A stretch of 64,000 nt of DNA from Chloroflexota bacterium (GTDB lineage: Bacteria; Chloroflexota; Dehalococcoidia; JACQUA01). The position numbers and the translations under genes were made by a program. This document shows positions 4,925 through 56,134 of this stretch, piece after piece. Location of the stretch: assembly GCA_016210565.1 (NCBI GenBank), contig JACQUA010000300.1:264-64263 (forward strand), read 5' to 3'. The notes under the pieces were generated by a model. The model searched no databases. It saw nothing but the letters and a program-made list of their open reading frames with translations, and had not been told where the DNA came from. Numbering within the stretch: the first letter of the stretch is position 1; each line of letters starts with the position of its first letter.

Positions 4925-4970
4925 GTAGGGTGGTTAAGTCCCGATGGCCATCGGGACTTAACCACCCTAC
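4925..4970. repeat. perfect 46-bp palindrome (GTAGGGTGG head family)
   Basis: GTAGGGTGGTTAAGTCCCGATGG is followed directly by CCATCGGGACTTAACCACCCTAC. It lies in the divergent region between the Rrf2 gene and the 5050 gene. Confidence 0.9.
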
Positions 4971-8355: not shown

Positions 8356-8455
8356 GGACAGGCAGGGACGCCCAGGCTTTGGACAGGCAGGGGCGCCCAG
8401 GCTTTGGACAGGCAGGGGCGCCCAGGCTTTGGACAGGCAGGGACGCCTGTCCTAC
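8356..8455 (-). repeat. four tandem 25-nt REP-like units
   Basis: GGACAGGCAGGG(A/G)CGCCCAGGCTTT starts at 8356, 8381 and 8406. A perfect hairpin unit spans 8431-8455. Its minus-strand GTAG head supplies the rSAM stop codon (8454-8452). Confidence 0.85.
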
Positions 8456-9888
8456 TGAAAGATAGACCTGGCCTTGCCGGCCAGTTCCACCAGTTGGGCC
8501 TTGTTGCGCACCGATACCAGGACCTTGGCCGTCTCTTTCCAGAAGCGGGGATTGACAAGGTAATATTTGCCGAATCTCTTCTGAATGTAAAACTCCCGGA
8601 ACGCCTTCTTGTCGTAGGCGACCAGGTCCGCGTTAGAGCAATCACGGGTGAGGTTGGCATTGACGTGGACGCTCCATTCCTTCTGTTCGCCCTTCCGGAC
8701 ACCATCGATGAGTCCTTTTTCCATGGCCTGGTCGTACAGTTCGGTGCCGAAAAGGGGTGTGGTTACGGAGAAGCCATAGAAGTCCAGGTTGAGCTCCCTG
8801 GCAAAGGCGAAAGTCTGTTCGATGCTGGCCCTGGTTTCGCCGAGCATCCCTATCATGAAATAGCCGGCGACGTGAAGTCCGGCTTCCTTTGTCCACTGCA
8901 CCACGTCTCGTATCTGATCGAGTTTGGTGTTTTTCTTCATCGCTTCCAGAACCTGCTGGTTGCCGGATTCAATGCCGTAGCAGATGCCCACGCAGCCCGC
9001 GTCACGCATGGCCTGCAACAGCGGCCGGGTCATGAGGTTCACGCGCCCGTTGCAGTACCAGATTACCTTCATGTTCGAGGCATTCAACAGCCGGCAGAAC
9101 TCGAAAACCCTCTCCCGGTTGAGGACGAAGGTGTCATCGTTGAACAGGAAACCGTTCACCCCGTACTGGCTGTAGAGCAGTTTCATTTCTTCAACGATAT
9201 TGGCGGCGCTTCGCGCCCGCCACTTGTGGCCCCACATGTCTTTGAAACAGAAGGTGCAACTGTAAGGGCATCCGCGGCTGCTGATGAGGTTGGTGCTGCG
9301 GACCTTCCCGAACCCTTTGAGGTTGAAACCCCAGGCCGCGAAATGGTTCCTGAGATACAGGTTCATCTTCAGAAAATGCCTGGCAGGGAATGGAATCGCA
9401 TCCAGGTCGTTTATGGGGTCAGCCCTGCCTGTCAGGGTAACGTTCCCGTTATCTCTATAGGCAATGCCTTTTATGACAGAGAGGTCGCCCCGGTCCATCA
9501 GGGCCGGGACCAACCTGGCTATGGTATTTTCGCCTTCTCCGATGACAATTACGTCGGCCCGGGAAACGCGCAGCAACTCTTCGGGGATGGTGGTGGCCAT
9601 TGGGCCGCCCAGGACGACTTTTGTTTCCGGGGCATTCTTCTTGACCAGATCGACCAGTCGGAGGATTTCTTTATGTTCCGTCAGCATGCCGGTTATACCT
9701 ACAATGCCGGCATTCCCGACTTGTTTCAGGATATCCGCATCCTTCATGTTCTCGACGTTCAGGTCGAGGACTTGCACCTCGTGGCCGTGGCGTTCCAGGA
9801 CTCCGGCAATATAGCTAATTCCGAGCGGCACGTACACGTTGGTGCTGGCCGTCTTGAGCCTGGGGTTGATCAATACTATGTTAGGCAT
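8452..9888 (-). CDS. B12-binding domain radical SAM protein
   Basis: 478 aa. The N-terminal Rossmann-like B12-binding region is IVLINPRL...GISYIAGVLERHGHEVQVLDLN. The CX3CX2C motif is SSRGCPYSCTFC. Confidence 0.85.
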   Translation of the reverse strand: MPNIVLINPRLKTASTNVYVPLGISYIAGVLERHGHEVQVLDLNVENMKDADILKQVGNAGIVGITGMLTEHKEILRLVDLVKKNAPETKVVLGGPMATTIPEELLRVSRADVIVIGEGENTIARLVPALMDRGDLSVIKGIAYRDNGNVTLTGRADPINDLDAIPFPARHFLKMNLYLRNHFAAWGFNLKGFGKVRSTNLISSRGCPYSCTFCFKDMWGHKWRARSAANIVEEMKLLYSQYGVNGFLFNDDTFVLNRERVFEFCRLLNASNMKVIWYCNGRVNLMTRPLLQAMRDAGCVGICYGIESGNQQVLEAMKKNTKLDQIRDVVQWTKEAGLHVAGYFMIGMLGETRASIEQTFAFARELNLDFYGFSVTTPLFGTELYDQAMEKGLIDGVRKGEQKEWSVHVNANLTRDCSNADLVAYDKKAFREFYIQKRFGKYYLVNPRFWKETAKVLVSVRNKAQLVELAGKARSIFQ

Positions 9889-10073: not shown

Positions 10074-11072
10074 CTAAAACCGCGCGCTGGCCTGAATGCG
10101 GTCCCAGTTCCGGGAGAACCAGCTCGCAACCTGTTCCAGTCCGGAGTGGATGTCCGTTTTAGGCTGGTAGCCCAGGACTCTGCGTGCTTTGTCAATGGAA
10201 GCCCTGCGGCGGGTCACTTTGTCCCAGGCGCGGCGCGGAACGGCTTGAATACCGGCGGGATTGCCGCAAATCCGGTTTATCCTGTCAGCCAGGTCCATCA
10301 CGCTGGTTTCCTTCTCCGAAGCCATATTGAAGACATCACCGATGGCTTCCGGTGTAGCGCCGAGGCGCATGAGACCATCAACGGCGTCCCCCACATAGAC
10401 AAAGTCCCTGGTCTCTTCTCCGGTCCCCATGACAGGCAGGCTTTTCCGCTGACGTGCCCAGTACATGAAGTTGGCGATGACGTTGCGGTATTTTCCGGGC
10501 GTCTCGCCGGGCCCGTAGACATTGAACAGGCGCGCCCGGACTACCGGCAATTTGTAGTAGTTGAAGAAGTAATTGCAGTAGAGTTCGCCGAGAAGCTTCG
10601 TAATCTGGTAGGGCGTATCCAGGTTGATGGAAACGAAATCTTCGCGCAGGGGCAAGGGGGCCTGGCTGCCGTAGACGGAGCATCCGGAGGAGGCGAAGAC
10701 AAATCTGGAGACCCGCGCCAGCCGGGAATGGTCCAGCAGCTTCAGGGTCCCCAGACCGTTCACTTCCAGGTCAGCCTCCGGGTGGTCCACTGAGTTCTGG
10801 TTGGCAAAATGGGCGGCCAGGTGGAACACGAAGTTGGGCCTTTCCGAGAAAACCTGTTTCAGGACTTCTCCGTCAGTGACAGTGCCCTGGACGAAGACGA
10901 TGTTTGACGCCCCGGGCACGTTCCACCGGGCCCCGGAGGAGAGGTCATCCAGGACCACGACCCGGCCGGCTCCGGCGTCGAGCAGGGCCGTAGTGAGATT
11001 ACTACCGATCGCCCCGGCCCCTCCCGTGACCAGGACTCGCTTGCCCTGATAGGCGCTCAGGTAGCTATTCAC
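10074..11072 (-). CDS. NAD-dependent epimerase/dehydratase (extended SDR; UDP-glucuronate decarboxylase-like)
   Basis: 332 aa with GKRVLVTGGAGAIGSNL and YxxxK (YQITK). It uses a GTG start that overlaps the upstream gene's stop as GTGA. Confidence 0.8.
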   Translation of the reverse strand: MNSYLSAYQGKRVLVTGGAGAIGSNLTTALLDAGAGRVVVLDDLSSGARWNVPGASNIVFVQGTVTDGEVLKQVFSERPNFVFHLAAHFANQNSVDHPEADLEVNGLGTLKLLDHSRLARVSRFVFASSGCSVYGSQAPLPLREDFVSINLDTPYQITKLLGELYCNYFFNYYKLPVVRARLFNVYGPGETPGKYRNVIANFMYWARQRKSLPVMGTGEETRDFVYVGDAVDGLMRLGATPEAIGDVFNMASEKETSVMDLADRINRICGNPAGIQAVPRRAWDKVTRRRASIDKARRVLGYQPKTDIHSGLEQVASWFSRNWDRIQASARF

Positions 11073-11953
11073 CTGCTGCCGGTCTTCCCCTGGCGGACCA
11101 GCCGGGTGATTTCATGGACGAAGTTCTCCAGAGCTAACACCTTTTCCGGCATCTCCCGGAATATCTTCTGGTGGTCGATCTGCCAGTACAGGTGGACGAG
11201 TAGATTGCGAAAATGGGCGAGGTCCACCATTTTCGGGGCGAGGCCCGGCGAGATAACCCGGGCCTTGCCGAGGATGGTAAATATGGTGCCGTAATCCTGG
11301 GGCTTTTCGAGGTGCAGCCTCGCTATCAGATGGTTGCCGATGTTTATGCAACTGTCGACGGCTCTTTGGAAGGCCCTTTCTACTATTCTCTGAGCGCCGC
11401 CATCGCTGATGTAGTCCTGTTCTTTCAACGAGGTCGCAGACTTCAGATAGCCCATCTCTTCCTGAATGAGCCGGAGTTGGAACTCAACTTTTTCGATGTC
11501 GACAGTCATGCCATCTCGTTTTCCGCCAGCTTCAAAGTGAAGGGTCACGGTGGTCGCCGGGCGCGCCGCATCGGGATTCTGCGTGATGAGGTTTGCTTTG
11601 AAGCTGGCCAGTCTCTCCGGGTTTCCAAGGGCGAGGACTTTGCCTTCCGACAGCACGCGGAAGGCAAAGCGAGGGGGCGCCTGAGCGAGGTCTATCAGGG
11701 TTATGTTGTCGCTCCTCACCCGCCGGCTAATGTTGACATAAATATCGACATCGATCTTGTTTCTATCTTCGGGGGTTAAGCCGTCTTCGAGAAGATAGGC
11801 CAGGTCGATGTCGCTCAGGGGCGTGTGTTCACCCCGAGCGCGGGAGCCAAACAGGATCAGGGCTGCGATAGGCCGGTACGAGGCCGTCCACTCAGCCAGA
11901 TCCCTGACGATCCTGGTCTGGGACGTTTTGATTCTTTCCGACTTTAGCGTCAT
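11069..11953 (-). CDS. fused minimal nucleotidyltransferase (MNT) - HepT/DUF86 HEPN protein
   Basis: The N-terminus carries LFGSRARGEHTPLSDIDLAYLL (GSx..D.D nucleotidyltransferase motif). The C-terminus carries FRNLLVHLYWQIDHQKIF (the RX4HXY motif of DUF86/HepT). Both lie in one 294-aa ORF. Confidence 0.75.
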   Translation of the reverse strand: MTLKSERIKTSQTRIVRDLAEWTASYRPIAALILFGSRARGEHTPLSDIDLAYLLEDGLTPEDRNKIDVDIYVNISRRVRSDNITLIDLAQAPPRFAFRVLSEGKVLALGNPERLASFKANLITQNPDAARPATTVTLHFEAGGKRDGMTVDIEKVEFQLRLIQEEMGYLKSATSLKEQDYISDGGAQRIVERAFQRAVDSCINIGNHLIARLHLEKPQDYGTIFTILGKARVISPGLAPKMVDLAHFRNLLVHLYWQIDHQKIFREMPEKVLALENFVHEITRLVRQGKTGSR

Positions 11954-23360: not shown

Positions 23361-24237
23361 CGGCTACGTTAGCCCATCCGAGGCATGAGCCATGTGGCTG
23401 CTTTGCCTTGCCCCGCCCGCACCCCGGAGGGCGGGTCCGGCGTATCTGCGAATGAACATGATCTTGCTTTCTGCAGGGGATGGGGAAAAGCATATCACAA
23501 CCGAGCTGCCCGTATCAATTTGATGGTCGTTAACATTGTCATTGTGAACCCCGATTTCGTCATCCTGATGGCAATCGTCCCGATGGAATCGGGACTCGCA
23601 AAGACAGTTCGTTTTCATCTTTGATGGTACGGCCTCGTCGGGATGGGTGATTGCCTTGCATGCCGCCCCGGAAAGATATACACTGTATGGAGTTATGGGC
23701 GCAAGCGCAATGGCACTGGGTGCTTGACCCGCGTCATTGAAAACCTCTTGCCCGCGGCCTAGACTCAAAAAGCCAGTCCCTCCACTCGGAAAAGACGCAA
23801 ACCAACGTAGGGGAGCGAACGCAGGGCCACCGGGCCTGTGGGAGCCTGGCGTGCCCTGGGGTGAAAGTGTCCCTTTTTTCGTTGTCGCGAGAATAAGGCA
23901 TCGGGCTGTCACCCTGAGCCGGAGCCCGAAGCGGAGCGAAGGGGCAGGCGAAGGGTCTTCACGCCCTCGAGGCAAGACGGGGCAAATGGTTCTTCGACTG
24001 TCCCGATTCTGTCCCGACTCGTCGGGATGCGTCGGGACGCTCGCCGCAAGAATGACAGGCGGCGTAGCTGTTTTCATACTTCATGGTGCGTTACCCCGCT
24101 GTGCGAGAGTCCGCTCGGTTCCGACCCCGATGCATCGGGGCATCGGGGCGACAGGTCGGGACAAGGCGGACCGGCGCATGGAGGAATTTTCTGCAAATCG
24201 CCAGGGTAATCGGGCTAACCGGGGAAGCAAACTGAGC

Positions 24238-25737
24238 ATGATTCCTTTCAAGGGGTTTGTCAGCAGGTCGATGGGCGGGCCGGTCATGACTGAGCAGGAG
24301 TTCGATCTTAAGCTGAGCCGGCGACTCAGGAGTCTCACTGCCGACTACGGCGTCCATTTCCAGCCGGCAGAGATAATCTGCGATGACGCCACTGCCGATG
24401 CAATCTTTCAGGCGGCCATGGAGTTGATTGGTGAGGTGGGGATTTATAACGTGGACACCAATCGGGTGATCCTTCTAACCAGTCAGGAACTGGAGGAGAC
24501 TTGCCGGCAGACGCCGAGGCACTTCGTCCGGGGAGCCGGCAGGGACGCGGTGACGGTCGCCGCCAGGAGTCATAACAGCCGGCTGGTCCCGTATGTCTTC
24601 CGATGGCCGTTGTGGCACCCCCGGTCGCTGACCAGTGAGGCGTTCTTGGCCGAGATGATGGAAGCTCACCTGCCGGAGAAGACGGAACTTGGTGACCTTG
24701 CCAGGGAATTGAAGCCCCGGCTCGAGGGGGTGGAGAACAAGGCGGGAACGGTTGGCGATACGATGTGGGCGATAGCCGTGGCCAGATGGTGCTTGACGGT
24801 GGCCAGGATGGTCGGGCGACCGGACATGTTCCTGGGAGCCGTCAGCGCCATCACTGCGCCGGCGATTCTGGCTTGCTTCGCCGGGGATAACCTCTATAAG
24901 AAGCACCACTCCTCTTTTTCAGTGACCACCATGCCCGAGCTCAAGATCAACTGGGAACATCTGCAACTGGCATTCATTGCCCGCGAAATGGGAGTGGCTA
25001 GACGCATCGGGGGAGTTACCGTGCTTGGGGGTTACGCCCGGAACGCGGAGGAGACTGCTATCCTTTCCGCCGCTACATTGCTAGCGCAGTTGAGCTATTC
25101 CGCCGGCGATTGGGCGCACGTAGCTCCGGTGGACCGGGAGGGGCAACGCAGCGGTCGCGCTACTATGCAGGCTCAAAGCGGCGCTTGCCGGGCGGCGGAG
25201 AGAAACATCGAGATTGCCACCACCATGCTTCAGCACACTGCTAATGGTCTCGGCAGCGCCTTCAGCCTTTACGAGAAGGCGGCGCTGGTCACAGAGCAGA
25301 CCTGCAGCGGGACCAGCTCCTTCTGGAAATTTCCCTGTCACCCCGGACGTGACGGGGAGCCAAAGACCGACCTGGACTGCGAATTCGTGGCGAGAGTGGC
25401 CCGGGCAGTAAGCGGCATGGAAAGGGAGCACGCTAACGAACTGGTGAATAAGATACTGGCGCTCTATGAGGGAAGTCTGGACCGCCCGGTTAAGGGTAAA
25501 CCTTATTCGTACTATTATGATTTGAGGACGCTTGCTCCGTTGCGGGAGCTGGTCGATATGCACCGGAAGGCTGAGGAGGACCTGGCGCGTCTTGGAGTGC
25601 CATTACCGCGGACGGCGTGTAGGGATACCCCTTGTGGGGGTCGAAACACTGGCGGTCAACCGGGCACGACAGGGGCAAGCCCTGTGGCTACGGGACAAGA
25701 GGCCCGCGCTGCGGTAAACGACAAGGAGGAACAGTGA
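24238..25737 (+). CDS. MtmB-superfamily protein (monomethylamine methyltransferase homolog) without in-frame UAG
   Basis: The start MIPFKGF parallels the MtmB start MTFRKSF. Blocks match my memory of Methanosarcina MtmB: GIYNVDTNRV, FVRGAGRDAVTV, VGRPDMFLGAVS and a C-terminal LALYE...DLARLGV. The track ORF starts at 23737 only because the upstream repeats lack stops. Confidence 0.55.
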   Translation: MIPFKGFVSRSMGGPVMTEQEFDLKLSRRLRSLTADYGVHFQPAEIICDDATADAIFQAAMELIGEVGIYNVDTNRVILLTSQELEETCRQTPRHFVRGAGRDAVTVAARSHNSRLVPYVFRWPLWHPRSLTSEAFLAEMMEAHLPEKTELGDLARELKPRLEGVENKAGTVGDTMWAIAVARWCLTVARMVGRPDMFLGAVSAITAPAILACFAGDNLYKKHHSSFSVTTMPELKINWEHLQLAFIAREMGVARRIGGVTVLGGYARNAEETAILSAATLLAQLSYSAGDWAHVAPVDREGQRSGRATMQAQSGACRAAERNIEIATTMLQHTANGLGSAFSLYEKAALVTEQTCSGTSSFWKFPCHPGRDGEPKTDLDCEFVARVARAVSGMEREHANELVNKILALYEGSLDRPVKGKPYSYYYDLRTLAPLRELVDMHRKAEEDLARLGVPLPRTACRDTPCGGRNTGGQPGTTGASPVATGQEARAAVNDKEEQ

Positions 25738-26879
25738 CTTACCCGGCAGGTTCAAACGACATTGTGACAATCCACATGGTGGGCGGCGTCAGCCCCCGGC
25801 GCGTCGAGTATGGCGAAGCGCCTGAGTCGATCTTTGCAATGACACATGAAAGAATCAAAGAGGCGGACATTCGTTTTTGCCACCTCGAGCGCAACCTTTC
25901 GACCAGGGGCTGCCTGCAGTACCGGGACCACATCACGTGGTTCGGGCGGCACCACCCGGACAATGTCAAGGCACTGGTTTTTGCCGGCTTCGATATTGTC
26001 TCCCATGCCAGCAACAACTGCTTTGACTATGGTCCCGAGGCGTTGCTGGAAACCATCGATGTCCTGCATGCCAACAACATGCAGGTTATAGGCGCCGGGA
26101 AAGATATTGCCGAAGCCCGGAGACCGGCGATCATCGCCGGGAACGGCATCAAGGTGGGGTTTCTGGCTTATTGTTCGGTGATGGGCGTCGAGTATGAGGC
26201 CAGGGAAGGCAAGCCCGGTTGCGCTCCCATCCGCGTTTCAACTTACTACGAGGTGCAGGACCCTCAGCCGGGAAACCCGCCAAGGATCATCACTGTCCCG
26301 CGGGAAGATGACGTCCGGGCCATGGAAGAAGATATTCACCGGCTGCGGAATCAAGTAGATGTGGTAGTTGTCTCCCAGCACTGGGGGACGCATCAGTCAG
26401 GGGTGCTGGCCATGTATCAACCCGCCGTCGGGCACAGGGCGATTGACGCCGGGGCAGACCTCGTTGTCGGCCACCACCCGGGCGTGCTCAAAGGCATAGA
26501 GATGTATAATGGAAGGGTCATCTTTTACAGCATCGGAAATTTTGCCCTCGAAACGCCTCTCAATGAGAAAGCGCCCCCGGGGGTATTTGCCGAGAGGACT
26601 TCGGCGACACATATCAAATGGCCGACTGAACCGGGATGGGCGCGAAACCCGGGACCGAAGAACAAGCGGTACACGATGCTGGCCAGAGTGGTCGCGGGCA
26701 AGAGCGGAGTCCGGAACGTGTCATTCCTGCCTTGCTATACCAATCAGCGCGCGGAGCCTGAAATCCTGTCCCGCAAGGACCAGAGGTTCCAGGAGGTCCT
26801 GCAATACATCGAACCGCAGTGCAAGGAGCTGGGCACCAACCTTACGGTGAAAGGAGACGAGGTAATCGTTTATAATTAG
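25734..26879 (+). CDS. CapA/PGA_cap-family metallophosphatase-fold protein
   Basis: The GTG start is preceded by AAGGAGGA (25723-25730) and overlaps the MtmB-like stop as GTGA. Motifs: FCHLERNL, SHASNNCFDYG, VIGAGKDIAEA, SQHWG and GADLVVGHHPGV..YSIGNF. Confidence 0.8.
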   Translation: MTYPAGSNDIVTIHMVGGVSPRRVEYGEAPESIFAMTHERIKEADIRFCHLERNLSTRGCLQYRDHITWFGRHHPDNVKALVFAGFDIVSHASNNCFDYGPEALLETIDVLHANNMQVIGAGKDIAEARRPAIIAGNGIKVGFLAYCSVMGVEYEAREGKPGCAPIRVSTYYEVQDPQPGNPPRIITVPREDDVRAMEEDIHRLRNQVDVVVVSQHWGTHQSGVLAMYQPAVGHRAIDAGADLVVGHHPGVLKGIEMYNGRVIFYSIGNFALETPLNEKAPPGVFAERTSATHIKWPTEPGWARNPGPKNKRYTMLARVVAGKSGVRNVSFLPCYTNQRAEPEILSRKDQRFQEVLQYIEPQCKELGTNLTVKGDEVIVYN

Positions 26880-27094: not shown

Positions 27095-28465
27095 ATGGAT
27101 GCATCATTCGCCTTTGCCCGCAATATCGCGAATATTAGATTCGAAGATATTCCGGCTGAGGTAGTGGCCGTCGTCAAAAACGATGTTCTGGACACACTGG
27201 GCACCGCTCTGGCCGGAACCACGCTGGGCACCGGCTGCCGTGAGGTGGTCGAGCTGGTCAAAGAAGGGGGAGGGAAGCCCGACAGCACCATAATAGGATT
27301 TGGCGGTAAGGTCCCCGCGTGGATGGCGGCCCTGGCCAATAGCACCCTGGCCTACGCGCTCGATTTTGACGAGTGTCATATGACGGGACAAATACATTCG
27401 GGCGCCACCAACGTCCCGGCTGCCTTTGCCGTTGCCGAACGGCTGGGGAAAGTTGACGGCAAGAGGTTCCTGACGGCCCTGACGGTGGGCATCGACCTTG
27501 GCGGCAGAATGTCGGTTGCTTCGTACCCCAGGGCCAGGGGGTGGCACCCCACCACGGTTTACGGGTTTTTTGCCACAGCGGCCACCGCCAGCAAGCTGCT
27601 GGGACTGAGCGAACTGAAGGTGCAACATGCCCTGGGCATCGCCTATTCACAGGCGTCGGGGCATGAGCAGGGCCATGGCGAGGGGTCGGACACCAAGAAG
27701 GTCCAGGCCGGCTTTGCTTCCAAGGGGGGTGTCCTGTCCGCGCTGCTCGCCGAAAGAGGCATCACCGGCGCCATCAACAGTTTCGAAGGAGAGTTCGGAC
27801 TGTACAAGGTGTATCACGCCGGGAGGACGTACGACTCCGCGGGCCTGACCGCCGACCTTGGAAGAAGGTTCGAGGTGAGCAATCTTAGTTTCAAGCCTTA
27901 CCCCTCCGGCCGCGGCACCCATGCTTCCATCGATGCCACGCTGGAGATAGTGCGGGAACACAATCTCCGGCCTCAGGACATCGAGAAGATCACCGTGTTC
28001 AAGAGTGCGATAGCGGTGAAGGTCGAGGGAGGGGAGCGAAAGCGGCGTCCGGTGAATGCCCTGGACGCGCAGCTTAACGTACCGTACACCGTGGCGACGG
28101 CCGCGGTCAAGAGGCGGGTCGGCCTGACGGATTTCACCCCCGAGGGCATCAAAGACCCCGCGGTACTGGAGATGGCTCAAAAGGTATTCGTGGAGGAGTT
28201 CCCGGAGTTCGGCCCCAACAACTTCCATCCGGGGATAACGGAAATACGGACGAAGGACGGGAAGATGTACACGAAGCGGGTGAACGAGCCCTTCGGCAAT
28301 CCCGAGAACCCGATGCCCAAAGAGCAACTCGTCGGGAAGTTCATGGAGTGTGCTTCCCACTCGGTCAAGCCATTGTCGAAGGCAACGCTCGACCGGGTGG
28401 TAGAGATGGCCATGAACCTGGAACAGGTTGACGATGCCGGCGCCATCATCCGGCTGCTCGCCTGA
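27095..28465 (+). CDS. MmgE/PrpD-family protein
   Basis: 456 aa. The N-terminus FARNIANIRFEDIPAEVVAVVKNDVLDTLGTALAG is typical of the family. AGGAGG lies upstream of the ATG. Confidence 0.85.
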   Translation: MDASFAFARNIANIRFEDIPAEVVAVVKNDVLDTLGTALAGTTLGTGCREVVELVKEGGGKPDSTIIGFGGKVPAWMAALANSTLAYALDFDECHMTGQIHSGATNVPAAFAVAERLGKVDGKRFLTALTVGIDLGGRMSVASYPRARGWHPTTVYGFFATAATASKLLGLSELKVQHALGIAYSQASGHEQGHGEGSDTKKVQAGFASKGGVLSALLAERGITGAINSFEGEFGLYKVYHAGRTYDSAGLTADLGRRFEVSNLSFKPYPSGRGTHASIDATLEIVREHNLRPQDIEKITVFKSAIAVKVEGGERKRRPVNALDAQLNVPYTVATAAVKRRVGLTDFTPEGIKDPAVLEMAQKVFVEEFPEFGPNNFHPGITEIRTKDGKMYTKRVNEPFGNPENPMPKEQLVGKFMECASHSVKPLSKATLDRVVEMAMNLEQVDDAGAIIRLLA

Positions 28466-28487
28466 CGCACGACGAGCGGGTCGCGCC

Positions 28488-29023
28488 AGATCATTGTCGG
28501 CAACCCTGTCCTGACCATGAAGCTGTTCAGCCAGATCTCCGTGGTCATGGGTCCGGATTGGTGGAGGAAATTGGTGGCGAACAGCCCGGTAATGGTTGAT
28601 GATGACAGGCTGGGCAACGAGTGGCTGGCCCACGGGAAATACCCCATCGCCATACTCTCCAGACAAAACATCCAGATGGAGTTCATGAAGGCCGGGGCGC
28701 CTGTCGAAATGGTGAGGACCAAAGAGGCAGCCTTCCTGGATGGCGGGCAGATCGCCACGTCCCTGATCGACCGCGCGCCGCATCCCAACGCCGCCAGGGT
28801 TTTTGTAAACTGGTACATGAGTAAAGAGGGAAGCTATCTCCAGAGCACCGTCATCGGCGCCCAGTCCGCCAGGCTTGACGTGCCCCTCGGCCACATAGCT
28901 CCCGAACTAAGGCGGGATGCGTCGGTCAAATACCTGAGCACCAGGACGGAGGACTTCAACCTGCGCATGCTGAAAGAGACACTGCTGGCGCAGGAAGTAT
29001 TCGCCCCGGTGCTGCGAAAATAG
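28488..29023 (+). pseudogene. 5'-truncated copy of the solute-binding protein gene (3' ~178 codons)
   Basis: IVGNPVLTMKLFSQISVVMGPDWWRKLVAN...FAPVLRK aligns with residues ~205-382 of the 29498-30646 product. Homology begins immediately after the PrpD stop, and no N-terminal half is present. Confidence 0.8.
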
Positions 29024-29053
29024 GTGGCACAGGCGGGGACGCCTGTGCCACCG

Positions 29054-29344
29054 GGCAACGTGTCGCTCAGGCGGACCGAGTATGGCGAGCCTCCTGAGTC
29101 TCCTTCCGGCACGGTCCACCGTAGGATCAAGTAGCGGACCAATCTTTCCGCGGGGGTGGACATGGTGTTCTCGGCGTCCGGTGAACGCCCTTGACGCCCA
29201 ACTTAACATATCCTATACTGTGGCTACGGCCGCAATGAAAAGGCGGGCCGGCTTGATCCATTGACCCTGAACAGCGTCGTCGAGATGGTCATGAACCTGG
29301 AAGAACTGGATGATGTGGGCGGTATCATCCGGGTGGTCGCTTGA
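29054..29344 (+). pseudogene. decayed CapA and MmgE/PrpD fragments
   Basis: GNVSLRRTEYGEPPES..VHRRIK matches the CapA N-terminus. RRPVNALDAQLNISYTVATAAMKRRAGL and VVEMVMNLEELDDVGGIIRVVA match PrpD internal and C-terminal parts. Stops and large deletions lie between them. Confidence 0.75.
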
Positions 29345-29497: not shown

Positions 29498-30646
29498 GTG
29501 AACAGAAAAGAGATAGCAAGAGTGGCTTTCGCCGGGCTGTTGGCGCTCAGCTTGGTCATAGCATCATGTGCATCCGTCCAGCAGCCCGCCCCCCCGGCGG
29601 CAGCGCCCGGGCAAGGGGCGGCGCCTCTCCAGGGATGGGAAGCGGACTGGCAGAGGGTACTGGCCGCGGCCAGACAGGAGGGACCACTCAATATCTACAG
29701 TCCGGCCGCCGCCGACCTGCGCGTGGGAATGACGGAGGCTTTCAAAGAGAAATATGGGCTGGACATAGAATGGACGGCGGGCAAAGCCGCGGAACTCGCC
29801 GAGAAGTACCTGCGGGAGCGGCAGGCGGGGCTTCACATCGCCGACCTGATGATGGGTTCGACCCAGAGACAGCTAACGGTGATGAAGCCCGGCGGCATGC
29901 TTGAGCCGATAAAGCCCCTGATTATTTTGCCTGAAGTCCTGGACATGAAGTTGTGGTTCCAGGGGGAGATACCCTGGGTGGACAACGAGAAGATGTACAC
30001 GATGGAGTCTATCCTTGCGCCCGACTATAAGGTGGCGGTCAACACGAAGATGGTGAGGCCCGAGGAAATCGCGTCCTACAACGACCTGCTGAACCCGAAG
30101 TGGAAGGGGAAGATCGTTGTGGGCAATCCTGTGCTGACCATGAAACTGTTCAGCCAGATTTCCACCGTCATGGGACCGGATTGGTGGAGGAAACTGGTGG
30201 CCAACGACCCGGTGATAGTGGATGACAACAGGCTCGGCACCGAATGGCTCGCCCACGGCAAGTACCCCATCGCCATACTCCCGAGACAGGATATCCGGGA
30301 GGAGTTCGTAAGAGCGGGTGCGTCCATCGATCTGGTGAAGCCCAGGGAAGCCAGTTTCCTGGACGGAGGGGCCATCGGTACCTCGATGTTCAAGAAGGCG
30401 CCCCATCCCAACGCGGCTCGAGTATTCGCCAACTGGTTCCTGAGCAAAGACGGAAGCTATCTCCAGAGCCGAGTCATCGGCCGGCAGTCGGCCAGGCTCG
30501 ATGTGCCCATCGACCACATCGCCGCTGACATGAGGCGCGATCCCTCAGTCAAATACGTGGTCACGGTTAATGAGGAGTTCAACCAGCGCATGGCGAACGA
30601 AACCCCGCTGGCGCAGGAGATCTTCGCCCCCCTGCTGCGAAAGTAG
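29498..30646 (+). CDS. ABC-type extracellular solute-binding lipoprotein (Fe3+/polyamine-type PBP2 fold)
   Basis: GTG start after CAGGAGGG. The lipobox is LVIASC. PHPNAARVFANWFLSKDG is typical of family-1 SBPs. No permease or ATPase is adjacent. Confidence 0.75.
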   Translation: MNRKEIARVAFAGLLALSLVIASCASVQQPAPPAAAPGQGAAPLQGWEADWQRVLAAARQEGPLNIYSPAAADLRVGMTEAFKEKYGLDIEWTAGKAAELAEKYLRERQAGLHIADLMMGSTQRQLTVMKPGGMLEPIKPLIILPEVLDMKLWFQGEIPWVDNEKMYTMESILAPDYKVAVNTKMVRPEEIASYNDLLNPKWKGKIVVGNPVLTMKLFSQISTVMGPDWWRKLVANDPVIVDDNRLGTEWLAHGKYPIAILPRQDIREEFVRAGASIDLVKPREASFLDGGAIGTSMFKKAPHPNAARVFANWFLSKDGSYLQSRVIGRQSARLDVPIDHIAADMRRDPSVKYVVTVNEEFNQRMANETPLAQEIFAPLLRK

Positions 30647-30732
30647 GAGTGCCACAGGCGCCCCGCCTGTGTGGGCGGCCGTTGCGCAAGGCGTCGGCTT
30701 GCGCAAGCTATGCGCCGGCAGATCGTCGAGTA

Positions 30733-31896
30733 ATGGTGAGTGACGTGAAGATCTCAGACAACGAAATCGTAATCCACGCGGTGGGAAACGTGTCCCCACG
30801 GCGGACGGAGTATGGTGAACCTGTCGAATCCCCTTTTGACATGGTCCACCGGAAGATCAAGGAAGCAGATGTATCCCTGTGCCAGTTGGAGATGATGTTT
30901 TCGACCGGCGGAGACGCTTTCCAGCGCCGAGAGGGTACGCCGGATTCAGCAATTGACCCCGCAAACGTTGAATCGCTGGTCTTCGGGGGATTTAGCGTCA
31001 TGTCCCACGCCAGCAACAACTGTCTCGACTATGGCCCCGCGGCGCTGCTTGATTCGATAGACGCCGTCCGGAGCAAGGGCATCCGGGTGATCGGCGCCGG
31101 AAAAGACATCGCCGAAGCCCGATCGCCGGCGGTGGTGGAACGAAAGGGGATTAAGGCCGGATTCCTGGCCTACAGCTCGGTAGTTCCCGCCGGCTACGAG
31201 GCGCGGGATGGAAGACCGGGTTGCGCGCCTGTTCGTGTGTTGGCCCGTTCCGCGGCCCGGGGGGATGGGACGGGAGTGCCCTCAGAGGCAACCGGCATAC
31301 CTGACGAAGATGATGTCCGGGCCATGGAAGCGGATATTCGCAAGCTGCGAAATCAGGTGGATGTTGTTGCTGTTTCAATGCACTGGGGGCAAAGCTCCGT
31401 GCCAGGAATCACGGCGGACCAGCGCGTAATCGGTCACAGGGCTATTGACGCCGGAGCAGACCTGGTCGTTGGGCATCACGGCGGCACCGTCAAGGGCATA
31501 GAAGTATACAAAGGAAGGGCTATCTTCTACTGCCTGGGTAACTTTGCCCTGGATAGGGCCCGTACGTATAAACCGGCCGTGGAAGGGGTGGGCGCCGGAG
31601 ATGTTCCGCGTGCGTCTCACAAATCGCAAACGGAGCCGGGATGGGAACGGAACCCGGGCCACAGGGACCGGCGAAATACGATGATGGTCAAATGCGTTGC
31701 CGGCAAGAATGGCGTCCGGAAGGTGTCGTTCCTGCCTGGCCGGACCAATCAGAAGGCGGAGCCTGAATTTGTTTCTCGGAACGATGAAAGATTTCAGGAA
31801 GTCCTGCGCTACATAGGGCCGCAGTGCCGGGATCTGGGGACCAATCTCACGGTGGAGGGGGATGAAGTAGTCGTTTGCGACTCGACCGGGGAGTAG
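30733..31896 (+). CDS. CapA/PGA_cap-family protein (paralog 2)
   Basis: MVSDVKISDNEIVIHAVGNVSPRRTEYGEP..., with the same motif set as 25734-26879. The track ORF begins at 30649. Confidence 0.8.
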   Translation: MVSDVKISDNEIVIHAVGNVSPRRTEYGEPVESPFDMVHRKIKEADVSLCQLEMMFSTGGDAFQRREGTPDSAIDPANVESLVFGGFSVMSHASNNCLDYGPAALLDSIDAVRSKGIRVIGAGKDIAEARSPAVVERKGIKAGFLAYSSVVPAGYEARDGRPGCAPVRVLARSAARGDGTGVPSEATGIPDEDDVRAMEADIRKLRNQVDVVAVSMHWGQSSVPGITADQRVIGHRAIDAGADLVVGHHGGTVKGIEVYKGRAIFYCLGNFALDRARTYKPAVEGVGAGDVPRASHKSQTEPGWERNPGHRDRRNTMMVKCVAGKNGVRKVSFLPGRTNQKAEPEFVSRNDERFQEVLRYIGPQCRDLGTNLTVEGDEVVVCDSTGE

Positions 31897-32004: not shown

Positions 32005-33381
32005 ATGGATGCATCTTCTGCCCTGGCGCACAGCGTAGCGAATATCAGATTCGATGATATTCCTGCTGAGGCGATAAGGGTCGCCAAAATGTCCCTTCTG
32101 GATACGCTGGGTGTCACCACGGCTGCGAGCACGCTGGGTCGCGGATGCCGTGAGGTGGTCGAGTGCGTCAAGGAAGGGGGAGGGAAAGAGGAAAGCACGA
32201 TTCTGGGTTTTGGCGGCAAGGCGCCATCGTACATGGCGGCGCTGGCCAACGGCATGATGGCCCATGCTCTCGATTATGACGATATCCACGAAGCGTCGTC
32301 CATCCATGCCGGCGCTGTGATTGTTCCGGCCGCCTTGGCGGTCGCCGAGCGGGCAGGGAAAGTGAACGGAAAGGAGTTCATTACGGCAGTGGTGCTGGGC
32401 GTGGAGGTTGGCTGCAGGCTCTCGCTGGCCGCCGCCCCGCGAGTCAGCGGGTTTCATCCGACCCCTGTGTTCGGGTTCTTTGGCGCGGCGGCTGGTGCCG
32501 GCAGGATACTGGGATTGGATGAAGCCCGCGTCCAGAATGCCCTTGGTATCGCCTATTCCCAGGCAGCCGGTAACCGCCAGTCCGTAAGCGATGCGGCCCT
32601 GACAGAGCGTCTGGAAGTGGGCTTCGCGGCGAAGGGCGGCGTTCTGTCCGCGCTGCTGGCCGAAAAGGGTATTACCGGAGCGATGAACAGCCTGGAAGGC
32701 GAGTTTGGATTCTACAAAGTGTACAACGGTGGGAAGTACAAGCCCGAAGTTCTGCTCTCAAACCTGGGCACGAGGTTTGAGGTGAGCAATCTGAGCTTCA
32801 AGCCGTATCCCTGCGGCCGCAGCCAGCACGCTTCCATCGATGCTACGCTGGAAATGGTGCGGGAATACGATATCCAGGCCGGGGACGTGGAGCGTATTAC
32901 GGTATTCAAAAGCCAGATGGCGGTAAAGGGCGTGGGCGTTCCCGCGGATCGAAAGCGGAGGCCCGAGAACCCCGTCGACGCCCAGTTCAGCATACCGTAT
33001 ACTACGGCGACTGCGGTGGTCAGGAGGAAGGTGGACCTGAGGGATTTCACGCCTGAGGCTATCAGGGACCCCGCTGTCCTCCAGGTGGCCCAAAAAGTGG
33101 ACGTGGAAGTATGTCCGGAATTCGAACCGTCCAACTACCATCCCGGGATAACGGAGATCAGGACGAAAGGAGGCAAAACGTATTCGCGGCGGGTAGAAGA
33201 GCCCCATGGCAATCCGCACCACCCGATTCCAGAGGGGGAGATGATAGAGAAATTCATGGAGTGTGCATCTCACGCCATGAGGCCGCTGTCAAAGGAAGAT
33301 GTCAGCCGCGTCATCGAGATGGTCATGAAACTGGAAGAACTGGATGATGTGGGCGCCATTTCCCGGCTGCTTGCCCGGTAG
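32005..33381 (+). CDS. MmgE/PrpD-family protein (paralog 2)
   Basis: 458 aa, collinear with 27095-28465. The stop TAG (33379-33381) lies inside the GGTAG head of a REP hairpin. Confidence 0.85.
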   Translation: MDASSALAHSVANIRFDDIPAEAIRVAKMSLLDTLGVTTAASTLGRGCREVVECVKEGGGKEESTILGFGGKAPSYMAALANGMMAHALDYDDIHEASSIHAGAVIVPAALAVAERAGKVNGKEFITAVVLGVEVGCRLSLAAAPRVSGFHPTPVFGFFGAAAGAGRILGLDEARVQNALGIAYSQAAGNRQSVSDAALTERLEVGFAAKGGVLSALLAEKGITGAMNSLEGEFGFYKVYNGGKYKPEVLLSNLGTRFEVSNLSFKPYPCGRSQHASIDATLEMVREYDIQAGDVERITVFKSQMAVKGVGVPADRKRRPENPVDAQFSIPYTTATAVVRRKVDLRDFTPEAIRDPAVLQVAQKVDVEVCPEFEPSNYHPGITEIRTKGGKTYSRRVEEPHGNPHHPIPEGEMIEKFMECASHAMRPLSKEDVSRVIEMVMKLEELDDVGAISRLLAR

Positions 33382-33402: not shown

Positions 33403-33557
33403 GCCGGAAAAAGGCCCGGGGCACGTGCAACGGCCCTCTCGGTATCGACATCCGCTCCGCTCTGCGAGAGTCCCGACGCCTCGGGACAAGGGGTGTCGCT
33501 ACGGGCTTCCCAGTGTCTGGATTGCAGTGAAGTTGCGGCTGTGCTAGACTCCCTGCC

Positions 33558-34544: not shown

Positions 34545-34978
34545 GGTGGGTTAAGCACAGCGGGGTGGTAGGGATGCGGCGCGCTGTGCGAACCCACCAC
34601 GAAGACAAGATCCCAAGTTCCAAACACCAAATTCCAAACAATCCCCCATGCCCGCTTGCAGCGGGCACCATGAAGGATGAACATGTCATTCTGAGCGAAG
34701 CGAGCGCAGCGGGCGTAGTCGAAGAATCTTTCGGGGCGGGGAAGCAAAGACCCTTCGCCTGCACCTTCGCTTTGCTCAGGGCTTCGGCTCAGGGTGACAT
34801 TTTCAGAGCAATATCAAAACCCCAACCGGCGAAACCCCAAAAGGGTTGGCCGCCAATTTGTTTATATTGAGACTTGAACCATCGGGGGTTTGTTTGGAAT
34901 TTGGAACTTGGTTTTTGGAATTTGCTTAGAATGGTGGGTTCGCGCCCCGATGCAATCGGGGCGGTTAACCCACCCTAC
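34541..34978. mobile_element. ~438-bp nested palindromic composite element between convergent genes
   Basis: Outer GTAGGGTGGGTTAA heads sit at both ends: plus strand at 34541, minus strand at 34978. Inside are CCAAA-rich and TTTGG-rich arms (34605-34645 / 34890-34925). The inner GTCATTCTGAGCGAAGCG...CTCAGGGTGACAT element spans 34684-34800. Confidence 0.75.
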
Positions 34979-40357: not shown

Positions 40358-40410
40358 GTGTCAACCTAGATTGATCTTGATGCTGAGTTCAGTCCTTGCA
40401 GGAGTACCGG

Positions 40411-42003
40411 ATGGATAAGTCGCTCTCAAGATGGGTATTGTTAATGACTTTGGCGCTGCTGGTGTTCGTGGTACCTTTACAGGGAGGGGTGGCCGCCGGG
40501 GATGAGCCTGCTACCCTGTGGACAAGGCAGTTTGGCACCAGCGGCTCTGATTATGTCACCGGAATTGCTGCCGGCGGCTCGGGTGTTACCTACGTCGTAG
40601 GTTCAACAACCGGCGTCTTCCCCGGGGAAAGCCTCCAGGGATTTCTTGGGGATGCCTTCATCCGCCGGTACGACAGCGCGGGGGTGCACCAGTGGACGAG
40701 GCAGTTTGGTGGCATTGCTACGAGTGGCGCGAGCGGGGTCGTCATCGACGGCTTGAGCAATGCCTATGTTGTGGGAAACACCGCGCCATCTCTACCCGGG
40801 CAAACCGGGTTGGGAGGCCTTGACGGGTTCATACGGAAATACAACACGGCCGGCCAGGAAGTCTGGACCAGGCAATTTGGTACCGGGGATCACGATTATG
40901 CCCGGGGAGTGGCGCTGGATGGCGACAGTGTTTACGTAGTGGGAGACACAGGATTTGTGTCCTACGGGGTGGCCGAATACGATTCCTTTATTCGGAAGTA
41001 TGATCTTTCCGGCGCTGGCTTTTGGGAATTCCGGTTTGCCGCCGATAAGGACAACTGGGCCTTCGCCGTAACTGCAGACGGCCAGGGTGGCATCTATGTG
41101 GTGGGAGATACATTCGATGGCTTCGGCCAGGGCGATGTCAAGGGGGGTTATCTACGGAAGTTCAATAGGGCCGGCTTCCCAATCTGGACCAGGATCTTTG
41201 GTGGCGTCAGCACGCATCCCCGGGCGGTGGCTGCGGACAGCTCCGGCAATGCCTACGTGGCAGGCTATGCCACTGATGGCGGCGGGATCGATGTCGCCTT
41301 TATCTGGAAGTTTGGTCCCCTGGGCGAGGAACTCTGGTCCCGGCAGTTCGGTACGGGTGCCGGCGCTACGATAAGCGGGGTGACGGTGGATGCCTCAAGT
41401 GTGTGGGTTGTAGGGTCCGCTACCGGCGCCTTGCTGTGGCAGACTGCGCACCTGGGCCTGGACGCTTTCATACGCCGCTATGATAGCGGCGGCAACGAAC
41501 TATGGACGAGGCAGTTCGGCACTGATTCCGATGATGTGGCCAGGGCAGTGTCTTATAATGGCAGCGGCCGCGTCCATGTGGTGGGTGAAACCGATGGTCT
41601 CCTCCCCGAACAAAACTCCGCGGGCGGCAGAGACGGCTTCATCATGAAACTCGGCGATCCGTCTGAACCCGATCCCACGCCGACCCCTACCCCGGGACCG
41701 GTTCCGTTGCCAACGCTGACCCCTACCCCCTCTGCGACGCCGACTCTCACCTTGACCGTAACGCCGACTCCGACCCCGGCTGCAATGCCAACCCCTACTC
41801 CTGCTCCTACGCCGGGTTTCTTGCTCGGAGATATCAACCGGGATGGGGTGGTGAATAACACTGACCTGGCTCTGCTGGGGGTGTCCTTCAACCTGCGTGC
41901 GGGGGATGCCGGCTACAATGCGAACGCCGACTTCAACCGGGATGGGATTGTGGATGTCTACGACCTGGTGGTGGTGGGGATGAATTTCGGCCGGACGCTG
42001 TAG
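40411..42003 (+). CDS. secreted SBBP beta-propeller repeat protein with Pro/Thr linker and C-terminal dockerin
   Basis: It has a signal peptide and about 9 repeats of W(T/S)RQFGT..D.A.GVA.D..G.VYVVG. The linker is PTPTPTP-rich. The dockerin duplicates are [12 protein letters not shown] and [12 protein letters not shown]. Confidence 0.8.
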
Positions 42004-43159: not shown

Positions 43160-43377
43160 GACCGGGGCCGGGACCACCTCGCTGCATCTGGCAAAATGTT
43201 GTCCGGGCTGTTGGGGAGTGTGCCGCTAAGGACGGCAATGAGATTGCTTCGAATGCCTCAGCCGGAGTCGCAACGGCGGGTTGGTCCGCGCTCTTTTGGT
43301 GAATCGGTGTTTGACGCTTTTGTCGTGGTCCAAAGACCGGAAGCGCGCAAGGTTTTGATCTTCAAAGGACTAACGTG

Positions 43378-44265
43378 ATGCCCGTGCGGGTCATGGTTGC
43401 CTGTCTGCTCGCGCTCCAGTTCATTTCCGCGGCCATCCCGGTCTCCGGCCTGGCCGGCGCCGACAACAGCGCGGTGGTGAATATCGTAGTGATGGAAGCG
43501 GTCGGGGTGGGCGATTTTCGCGGAACGAGGTTCCCGGCGCGCCCCGCGGGAGAAGCAGCCGGTGCGCCGCAGGCACCCCTGTCTGTCCCCCCTTCTCCGG
43601 CGTCAGCGAGCAAGCCGGCCCTAGCAACAGAGCAGCCGGGGACTCAGGCGGAGCCGCAGCCCGTCGGTGAACGCGTAGCCGTGGCCGATTCCTCCTCAGT
43701 TTTGCCGTCCGTTCCGGTCACCCTGAACGAGGCCGTTTCCGTCTGGGACTTGCCGCGCGCGCTTCTGCCGGTGCCGGTGACGGTCAACGAGGCTGTGGGC
43801 GTGGCGGACCTCCCGAGCGCCCTGCTGCCGGTCCCCGTGACGGTCAATGAGGCCGTGGGCGTGGCAGACCTCCCGAGATCCCTGCTGCTGGTCCCCGTGA
43901 CGGTGAATGAGGCTGTCGGCGTGTCGGACTTGCCGCGCGCCCTGGCGCCGGTCCCCGTGACGGTGAATGAGGCTGTCGGCGTGTCGGACTTGCCGCGCGC
44001 CCTGGCGCCGGTTCCTGTGATGGTCAATGAAGCGATCTCGGTGGCGGACCTGCCGGGCGCCCTGGTGGTCATACCGCCGCCGTTTTCGGGCGACGCCAAC
44101 AAGGACGGCAGGGTGGACGGCGCAGATCTGGCGCTGGTCCTGGCATCGTTCAACAGGCGCAGGGGAGCCCCAGGCTTCGATGCCAATGCCGACTTCAATG
44201 GCGATGGGATTGTGGATGTGTACGACCTGGCGGCGGTGGGGGTGAATTTCGTCCGGACGCCGTAG
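43378..44265 (+). CDS. secreted protein with six 20-aa tandem repeats and a C-terminal dockerin
   Basis: It has a signal peptide, the repeat VPVTVNEAVGV(A/S)DLPRAL(L/A)P x6, and dockerin DANKDGRVDGAD / [12 protein letters not shown]. Confidence 0.75.
   Translation: MPVRVMVACLLALQFISAAIPVSGLAGADNSAVVNIVVMEAVGVGDFRGTRFPARPAGEAAGAPQAPLSVPPSPASASKPALATEQPGTQAEPQPVGERVAVADSSSVLPSVPVTLNEAVSVWDLPRALLPVPVTVNEAVGVADLPSALLPVPVTVNEAVGVADLPRSLLLVPVTVNEAVGVSDLPRALAPVPVTVNEAVGVSDLPRALAPVPVMVNEAISVADLPGALVVIPPPFSGDANKDGRVDGADLALVLASFNRRRGAPGFDANADFNGDGIVDVYDLAAVGVNFVRTP
43711..44070 (+). repeat. six in-frame 60-bp tandem repeats (coding)
   Basis: Copies 4 and 5 look identical by eye. The period is 60 nt, equal to 20 aa. 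Confidence 0.9.
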
Positions 44266-44652
44266 GTAATGCCGCGCCGGGTACCACAGGCCTCCGTGCC
44301 TGTGCGCCGTGAACCAGACCGTTGTCAATATATCTTTGTCGTTGACCTTTACCCCCAGGCGCCCCGCATCGGGCCCTTGTCGATCGTCAGGATAACATAT
44401 ATCTGCCGTGTCCAAAATCCAGCTCTCACAGGCACGGAGGCCTGTGGTACCGGGTGGTGGGTTGGCACAGCCGCCCAGACTCCTCGTCGCCCCGGTGCGC
44501 TTGACCCACCCTACGGTGCTGGAATCCCATCGCCCCCTCCCGGGGATGGTGGGTTACGCTCGTGGTCCGGAGGTCCGCCGGGTTGTACTTCTTATCAACG
44601 TGTGTCAGGCCAACCAGGGCGTGGCGTGTCGGCTCGCTTCACCTACCCTACG
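44190..44652 (+). repeat. second copy of the ~470-bp duplicated segment
   Basis: It is collinear with 41925-42392. Its terminal CACCTACCCTACGG supplies the TAG stop of the convergent lyase gene (44650-44648). Confidence 0.75.
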
Positions 44653-47896: not shown

Positions 47897-48251
47897 ACGG
47901 TAGCACGTCTGTTGCCAATTGCCAAGTCCCCAGCCGTCCGGCCATCGTGGGCGTAGGGTGGGTGAAGCGCGCATGGCCAAACACGGGGAGAGAATCGTCG
48001 CTGTTGCGCGCGGAACCCACCGGTTGCCATGTCCCCCTCCGCGGAATGGTGGGTTGCGCTCGCGACTGGCGGAGATTCTGGCGCGTCCGCCTTATCGACG
48101 GATGCCCGGCCAACCAGGGTATGGAGTGTCGGTTCGCTTCACCCACCCTACGTGGCTTAACCCACTCTACGTGTCTCGCGGATGTCCAGGCAACCGGGGG
48201 ATTGCTTCGTCCCGACGAAATCGGGACTCGCAATGAAAGGCTATGTCCCTT

Positions 48252-49849: not shown

Positions 49850-49930
49850 CTGTCTCCCGGACGTCCATGCAACCGGGGGATTGCTTCGTCCCGACGAAAT
49901 CGGGACTCGCAATGACGGCCTATACCCCTT

Positions 49931-54814: not shown

Positions 54815-54838
54815 TTAGACATTAAACAATAACCTGGC

Positions 54839-54907: not shown

Positions 54908-54919
54908 GGAAACTGACCG

Positions 54920-56053: not shown

Positions 56054-56134
56054 TGTACAATGGCAATCGGCGGGGGTGGAAGTATGCAAGCTGGGGGAAC
56101 ATGTTTCTATAAACTCACGCAGCGTAGATAGGGA

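Follow-up and report, generated by a model that had tools for sequence, protein, structure and literature searches.

The locus

We analyzed a 64,000-nucleotide stretch of DNA (hereafter the window; contig JACQUA010000300.1 of GenBank assembly GCA_016210565.1, positions 264 to 64,263) from a Chloroflexota bacterium of the class Dehalococcoidia, focusing on a gene for a protein of the MtmB methyltransferase family (the MtmB-like gene) and on the CapA-family gene that it overlaps. As judged from sequence and predicted structure, the gene product is an intact and ordinary methyltransferase of this already known, vitamin B12-dependent family, with a TIM (triosephosphate isomerase)-barrel fold and without pyrrolysine (Pyl). 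The gene belongs to a plus-strand block at 23.4–33.4 kb, located between polysaccharide-biosynthesis genes, in which CapA-family and MmgE/PrpD-family (PrpD) genes recur; it occupies the slot that a gene for a solute-binding protein (binding protein) has in the other units of the block (Table 1).

Table 1. Features of the MtmB-like gene and of the block in which it lies (window coordinates).
Feature	Position	Strand	Basis or remark
Spacer without genes, 877 bp, with short dispersed repeats and hairpins	23361–24237	.	Upstream of the MtmB-like gene; no Rfam match
MtmB-like open reading frame, 499 amino acids (aa)	24238 (ATG)–25737 (TGA)	+	
Conserved core, residues 1–457, putative non-Pyl MtmB-family methyltransferase	24238–25608	+	Pfam, PDB, Foldseek, DNA homology
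C-terminal read-through tail, 42 aa, window-specific, with TGA stop	25609–25737	+	Absent from homologs; low predicted local distance difference test (pLDDT) score
Shine-Dalgarno sequence AAGGAGGA (25723–25730) and GTGA stop/start overlap (25734–25737)	25723–25737	+	Sequence reading
CapA-family gene, copy 1 (PGA_cap, metallophosphatase fold)	25734–26879	+	Pfam PGA_cap, E = 1.1e-61
MmgE/PrpD-family gene, copy 1	27095–28465	+	MmgE_PrpD_N, E = 9e-62; MmgE_PrpD_C, E = 4e-36
Decayed middle unit	28487–29329	+	tblastn of intact copies and blastn
Decayed unit: C-terminal half of binding protein	28487–29020	+	
Decayed unit: CapA remnant	29054–29185	+	
Decayed unit: PrpD remnants	29172–29255, 29252–29329	+	
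Solute-binding protein, intact, lipoprotein-like N-terminus	29498–30646	+	Pfam SBP_bac_11/8/1/6
CapA-family gene, copy 2, likely start ATG 30733	30649–31896	+	Pfam PGA_cap, E = 9e-57
MmgE/PrpD-family gene, copy 2	32005–33381	+	Pfam matches

An intact MtmB-family protein without pyrrolysine

The protein matches the Pfam MtmB family (PF05369) with an E value of 1.7e-53 and 182.5 bits, far above the gathering cutoff of 25, and the match is full-length, spanning residues 9–453 of the protein and positions 8–449 of the 450-position profile. In a phmmer search of the PDB, Methanosarcina barkeri MtmB (1L2Q/1NTH) was found at E = 3.7e-35 over residues 7–454. An AlphaFold2 model, built from an alignment 15 sequences deep, reached a pLDDT of 86.6 and a predicted template modeling (TM) score of 0.86. 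Its top PDB matches in Foldseek were 1NTH, 1L2Q, and 1TV2 (E ~6e-27, TM score 0.78–0.85), with MttB and MtgB structures ranking far below, so that the protein is predicted to have the MtmB-type TIM-barrel fold. The initial annotation, made from the sequence alone, had proposed full-length homology to MtmB, and both the profile search and the structural comparison bear it out.

At the nucleotide level, blastn homology to relatives extends from 24238 to ~25604, which is where the coding sequences of the relatives end. All relatives begin at the position equivalent to ATG 24238, and an upstream in-frame extension (167 open codons from TTG 23737) was rejected as a repeat-derived translation with no homolog. 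The core consists of 457 conserved codons with neither a frameshift nor an internal stop, and all 47 clade-invariant columns are retained. Departures from the strong consensus number 7, compared with 3–16 in the seven relatives checked, and the mean identity to outgroups is 0.478, compared with 0.448–0.487 for the paralogues. From these alignments, the protein appears neither more diverged nor faster evolving than its paralogues.

At the site of Pyl, where MtmB reads GRPGMGV-O-GPETS, the MtmB-like protein reads GRPDMFL-GAVSAI. The column opposite Pyl holds a gap in the HMMER alignment and a glycine in the MAFFT alignment; under either, the open reading frame is uninterrupted and contains neither a UAG codon nor Pyl, as initially annotated. 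No in-frame UAG therefore corresponds to MtmB residue 202, the mark of a true Pyl-dependent MtmB. Across 154 full-length family members, this column is glycine in 36, a gap in 38, and varied in the rest. On this basis, the protein is a member of the Pfam MtmB family and not a true Pyl-dependent MtmB. The name "monomethylamine:corrinoid methyltransferase," which the NCBI records give to its relatives, is doubtful in view of the missing Pyl.

Probable loss of the stop codon and overlap with the CapA gene

The TGA stop of the MtmB-like gene (25735–25737) overlaps the GTG start of the CapA gene (25734–25736), and this start is backed by a 69%-identical CapA homolog that aligns from residue 1. Both the GTGA overlap and the Shine-Dalgarno sequence AAGGAGGA upstream are present as initially described. 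However, the segment that carries them is peculiar to the window. Close relatives stop two or three codons past a conserved GVP(L/F/M) motif, whereas the MtmB-like gene runs 42 residues further. This tail is missing from all 14 close homologs, and among the 615 family representatives discussed below, no HMMER match reaches beyond query residue ~462. In the AlphaFold2 model, pLDDT falls below 35 for residues 460–499, and the tail is accordingly predicted to be disordered.

The simplest reading is that loss of the original stop codon led to translation through a spacer of ~120 bp up to the TGA at the CapA start. The CGG at 25609–25611 of the window corresponds to a TGA in one relative (L003), and the stops of the remaining relatives fall within one or two codons of this point. 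By an estimate from base composition, a random read-through at 60% G+C would remain open over 43 codons in about one-quarter of cases. The GTGA overlap thus exists because CGG stands in place of the original stop, and since it depends on a lost stop and a non-conserved tail, the coupling to CapA would be a recent local accident. The translational coupling of the two genes, which had been put forward as a trait of a module, accordingly hangs on a tail that no other family member has. We also considered whether 25609–25734 could be a remnant of the 3' end of a binding-protein or FAD (flavin adenine dinucleotide)-oxidoreductase gene. No similarity was found, and the matches to two loci (L014/L018) in that search were limited to the CapA start and ~10 bases before it.

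Relatives and their gene neighborhoods

A word-indexed search returned 14 relatives of 440–465 aa at 34–74% identity, mainly from Chloroflexota metagenome-assembled genomes (MAGs); among genome records, a Dehalococcoidia MAG comes closest. An exhaustive HMMER search yielded 615 family representatives (clusters at 50% identity); among those listed, nearly all full-length representatives are 450–470 aa long. Relatives occur at only 4 loci among GTDB species representatives, and none was found in the JGI metagenome contigs scanned with the MtmB-like alignment. By sequence, the protein falls in a small Chloroflexota/Dehalococcoidia clade of MtmB-like paralogues. A literature search on MtmB homologs in Dehalococcoidia returned nothing relevant.

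The gene neighborhoods were compared in ten distinct contexts of the closest relatives, from Chloroflexota/Dehalococcoidia MAGs, at 32–74% identity. In six of the ten, a B12-binding corrinoid gene directly adjoins the MtmB-like gene: L001/L002 (73% identity), L003 (56%), L004 (72%, the Dehalococcoidia MAG), L006/L007 (34%), L008 (46%), and L096 (46%). By sequence reading, these corrinoid proteins contain a DxHxxG motif; where complete, they are ~211 aa long. The corrinoid protein of L096 is cut by the contig end, while that of L008 (39–1094) has 351 aa, with an extra N-terminal ~140 aa without a Pfam match on record. As for the other contexts, the flanking genes encode FAD oxidoreductases in L005 and, in L010/L011, two binding proteins of the broad family found in the window; the L009 and L095 neighborhoods are cut on one side. 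Neither CapA nor PrpD lies beside the MtmB-like gene in any of the ten, although the initial annotation had counted on their recurrence if the genes formed a module. Transporters beside the paralogues are varied (tripartite ATP-independent periplasmic, ATP-binding cassette, major facilitator superfamily, and binding proteins), which suggests different substrates for different paralogues.

In L001, the gene order is corrinoid, MtmB-like, MtmB-like, and one NCBI MAG (accession run MBI433xxxx) holds at least six MtmB-like paralogues on at least four contigs. One of these, P0006, lacks a corrinoid gene next to it, and the genes on its flanks encode binding proteins of the family found in the window. 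Given multiple paralogues and shared corrinoid genes, a paralogue without a corrinoid gene of its own is normal in this clade.

Two further arrangements were observed among the relatives. In a related Chloroflexota MAG (L001 2304–5259; L010 167–4269; MBI4330170–178), several MtmB-like paralogues appear to share one cluster with a single corrinoid gene, with binding proteins interleaved. Partly inferred from accession numbering, the sequence of genes would be corrinoid, MtmB-like, MtmB-like ... MtmB-like, binding protein, MtmB-like, binding protein. On a 33-kb contig, the relative P0004 lies ~11 genes from the CapA gene P0076 without adjoining it, with the order guessed from accession numbers.

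Partner genes in the window

In agreement with the initial annotation, corrinoid, MtbA, RamA, and pyl genes are all missing from the window. A tblastn search with the corrinoid proteins of the relatives found no methylamine-type corrinoid protein in the 64 kb (E ≥ 0.5). A Pfam survey covered 46 candidate open reading frames outside the block, among them all non-shadow frames of 200 aa or more. It detected neither URO-D/MtbA nor RamA nor Pyl proteins, and the sole B12-binding domain that it revealed belongs to a B12-radical-SAM enzyme (8452–9888). No pylTSBCD genes were detected in the window; the tRNA scan returned no tRNA gene at all and therefore no pylT. A corrinoid protein with B12-binding_2 and B12-binding domains, adjacent or nearby, is thus a feature of the clade (six of ten neighborhoods) and not of this locus. 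From these comparisons, the missing partner would be a local trait of the window copy rather than of the family.

Three candidates upstream of the gene were examined and rejected: (i) a cobalamin or other riboswitch, for which there was no Rfam match at the gathering threshold or at E ≤ 1 (indeed, no Rfam match was found anywhere in the window); (ii) a remnant of a corrinoid gene in 23361–24237, where tblastn found nothing and the sequence is built of short dispersed repeats; and (iii) a CoA (coenzyme A)-transferase remnant in the same spacer, where the weak match (E = 4e-5) proved to be a translated 53-bp intergenic repeat and not a gene.

The CapA-PrpD module

The CapA-PrpD module is present 2.5 times in the window, and the second copy and the decayed third lack an MtmB-like gene. 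The two intact copies share 57% identity in CapA and 62% in PrpD (tblastn) and are therefore old paralogues rather than a fresh duplication. In the decayed unit, the binding-protein half is 72% identical to the intact copy, and the CapA and PrpD remnants measure 40–130 bp. The intact binding protein has a weak PhnS2-like NCBIfam match below the cutoff, and CapA copy 1 has no signal peptide or membrane anchor on reading of its N-terminus. Elsewhere, the window encodes another two binding proteins, a third PrpD, and two CoA-transferase III domains. Further fragments lie within 60656–61123: the C-terminal 87 residues of a PrpD, which match the intact PrpD at 62596–63972 with 90% identity, and a short binding-protein piece at 61016–61123.

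A search with the CapA gene gave 997 homologs at E ≤ 1e-20. In Chloroflexota MAGs, single contigs carry numerous paralogues, and one contig of 44,936 bp accounts for at least nine of the homologs listed. We inspected 80 metagenome loci with CapA relatives of 40–75% identity. None contains an MtmB-like or corrinoid gene, and 35 carry PrpD on the same contig. For 51 CapA genes, 1.2 kb or more of downstream sequence was visible; the gene that follows is PrpD in 16, another CapA in 5, and a binding protein in 4. The locus of the 69%-identical CapA homolog reads PrpD, binding protein, FAD oxidoreductase, electron transfer flavoprotein (ETF) beta, ETF alpha, PrpD, FAD oxidoreductase, CapA, CoA ligase, UbiD. 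The CapA-PrpD pair is common in metagenomes, with at least 462 matches, and our literature search found no published function for it. Since CapA often lies directly 5' of PrpD, the pair, often with a binding protein, can be regarded from gene order as a conserved, multiplied, and uncharacterized module. Its link to FAD/ETF dehydrogenases and CoA-transferases suggests, by inference only, a role in the catabolism of organic (poly)carboxylic acids.

The initial annotation had joined the MtmB-like gene, CapA, PrpD, and the binding protein into one small-molecule catabolic module. The part concerning CapA, PrpD, and the binding protein stands as a recurrent, uncharacterized unit, while the MtmB-like gene falls outside it, being associated with it in neither the ten MtmB-like neighborhoods nor the 80 CapA loci.

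Comparison with known systems

The MmgE/PrpD family includes 2-methylcitrate dehydratase, cis-aconitate decarboxylase, and iminodisuccinate epimerase. Both Pfam domains of the family are present in the window genes (E ≤ 1e-35), while the NCBIfam PrpD equivalog models score 31–38 bits against cutoffs of 458–950; the window genes are therefore not true 2-methylcitrate dehydratases, and membership holds at the family level only. The CapA gene shares the PGA_cap metallophosphatase-fold domain with CapA/PgsA of poly-gamma-glutamate synthesis and with MslH, a lasso-peptide C-terminal tryptophan epimerase whose model gives a partial match (E = 6e-26, 91 bits against a cutoff of 700). Unlike in those systems, there are no CapB/CapC (PgsB/PgsC) or lasso-peptide genes in the window, and no CapB/PgsB-CapC/PgsC operon was seen in the window Pfam survey or at the CapA loci of the relatives. 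The CapA gene is linked instead to MmgE/PrpD, binding-protein, FAD-oxidoreductase/ETF, and CoA-transferase genes.

With M. barkeri MtmB (1L2Q, 1NTH, 1TV2; PF05369), the MtmB-like protein shares full-length homology, the predicted TIM barrel, and, apart from its tail, equal length, at 23–24% identity; an adjoining corrinoid protein gene is shared between MtmB systems and the close relatives. It differs from MtmB in having glycine or a one-residue gap at position 202 and AVSAI in place of GPETS in the next loop. Moreover, MtmB belongs to a methanogen, whereas the host here is a bacterium whose window lacks pyl genes and MtmC. The quaternary-amine methyltransferases MtgB, MtcB, MtpB, and MtyB of the non-Pyl MttB superfamily (2QNE, 9YCE) resemble the protein in the Pyl-free TIM barrel and in the logic of corrinoid methylation. 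However, they belong to another Pfam family, and the similarity is one of distant fold (Foldseek E ~1e-6 to 1e-7, TM score 0.38–0.49, identity 12–15%).

A functional precedent is MtqB of Methanococcoides methylutens Q3c, a tetramethylammonium/choline:corrinoid methyltransferase that its 2026 description presents as the first of the non-Pyl homologs of MtmB to have its function demonstrated (PMC13044021). This overtakes the earlier statement that no function had been assigned to such homologs. The cognate corrinoid protein with which MtqB works, MtqC, is a separate protein, and the MtqB clade has a conserved Met-Cys/aromatic active-site signature; in the tree of the same paper, which comprises 1,061 family sequences, the majority are non-Pyl (PMC13044021). 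MtqB and the MtmB-like protein are both non-Pyl members of the MtmB family, and the MtqB/MtqC pairing is matched by the separate corrinoid partner that the neighborhoods of the relatives suggest for the latter.

Other features of the window

The 53-bp repeat at 23907–23959 recurs at 34747–34799 and 52575–52627 (copies 89–92% identical). The last copy lies inside a 908-aa open reading frame (51319–54045), between its two CoA-transferase III domains, and this apparent fusion may in fact represent two separate genes with an open spacer between them. A hairpin, GTCCCGA(4–6 nt)TCGGGAC, recurs in intergenic spacers (4938–4957, 23575–23607, 24000–24038, 33470–33487, 48207–48239, and 49816–49916), including both edges of the 23.4–33.5 kb block. 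Its two 7-mers occur 12 and 13 times compared with ~6 expected, and it may be a repetitive extragenic palindromic (REP)-like element or a terminator.

The stretch at 54000–62000 has a lower G+C content (50–53% versus ~60% elsewhere), contains a Fic/DOC protein (54920–56053) and a 1071-aa MmeI/Eco57I-like restriction-modification methylase (56770–59985), and is probably an acquired island. On the minus strand, at 11069–11953, a 294-aa open reading frame combines nucleotidyltransferase (Polbeta/NTP_transf_2) and HepT-like RNase domains, a fusion of the MNT/HepT toxin-antitoxin pair that two genes usually encode. Dockerin-domain proteins are encoded at 40396–42003 (also with beta-propeller repeats) and 43375–44265, adjoined by a 1110-aa heparinase II/III/alginate-lyase-like protein (44648–47980).

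Interpretation

We consider it likely that the MtmB-like gene is a stray but functional MtmB-family paralogue, that its corrinoid partner is encoded elsewhere, and that its overlap with CapA is accidental. By analogy with MtmB and MtqB, the enzyme would bind a methylated substrate, probably an amine, and methylate the Co(I) of a separate corrinoid protein of ~211 aa. Among the relatives, the gene for this protein lies next door, and one such gene may sit beside several tandem paralogues. The window copy would then be a stray bordering the 5' end of a tandem array of binding-protein/CapA/PrpD units, part of which has decayed, with the corrinoid partner and the downstream methyltransferase presumably encoded elsewhere in the genome. 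After its original stop was lost, 42 codons of old intergenic spacer would have come to be translated up to the TGA that overlaps the CapA start, while the neighboring CapA-PrpD unit, with or without a binding protein, would work independently.

Several points weigh against this explanation. (i) The ten neighborhoods leave out the closest NCBI contigs (P0002, P0004). (ii) The MtmB-like genes of the related MAG lie among binding proteins of the same broad family as those in the window, making a functional link to both enzyme sets possible. (iii) The distant corrinoid protein, second methyltransferase, and activase are proposed, presumably encoded outside the 64 kb that the data cover. (iv) The overlap and the strong Shine-Dalgarno sequence would couple translation if the genes were co-transcribed. 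(v) The loss of the stop could be an assembly or sequencing error.

One alternative is that the gene is dying: relocation would have separated this paralogue from its corrinoid partner, and the loss of the stop would be the first lesion of its decay. This fits the absence of a partner within 64 kb, the repeat-rich upstream spacer, and the decay nearby, where binding-protein, CapA, and PrpD fragments persist at 28487–29329 and 60656–61123. However, 457 conserved codons free of frameshifts and internal stops, retention of all clade-invariant residues, and a rate no faster than that of the paralogues make it unlikely, and a disordered C-terminal tail need not harm a TIM-barrel enzyme.

Recruitment into a new MtmB-like/CapA/PrpD operon, in which the three enzymes would share a substrate (a methylated amino-polycarboxylate, for instance, that is demethylated before its carbon skeleton is processed), is a proposal that we regard as about equally unlikely. 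The GTGA overlap with its Shine-Dalgarno sequence, the common strand and short spacers of the three genes, the intactness of the MtmB-like gene, and the paralogue of the related MAG, whose flanking binding proteins share their broad family with those of the CapA-PrpD units, are all in keeping with it. Yet the arrangement is found in none of the MtmB-like contexts and none of the CapA loci, the overlap rests on a non-conserved, disordered read-through tail, and the operon would lack the corrinoid protein that the chemistry of the family needs. The more specific form of this idea, capture of the enzyme by the CapA-PrpD operon with a shared substrate and with corrinoid supplied in trans or as free cobamide, appears improbable; if true, it would be the first link of the MtmB family to non-methylotrophic catabolism in Chloroflexota.

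Finally, an assembly or sequencing artifact behind the juxtaposition or the missing stop is very improbable: although this is a metagenome contig with homologs solely from MAGs or metagenomes, and paralogous repeats in the region favor mis-joins, G+C content and strand skews run unbroken across 24–34 kb, and the junction at 25605 has no repeat and is flanked by unique sequence on both sides.

For the family as a whole, non-Pyl MtmB homologs are numerous, as the 615 clusters attest, and MtqB alone among them has a known substrate. The analysis delineates a Chloroflexota/Dehalococcoidia clade in which genomes carry multiple paralogues, usually beside one corrinoid gene and varied transporters, a pattern suggestive of a demethylase family that acts on different methylated compounds in sediment or soil bacteria. 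The clade offers a useful list of targets and no new principle; the more promising lead is the CapA-PrpD pair, which is widespread and heavily multiplied in Chloroflexota.

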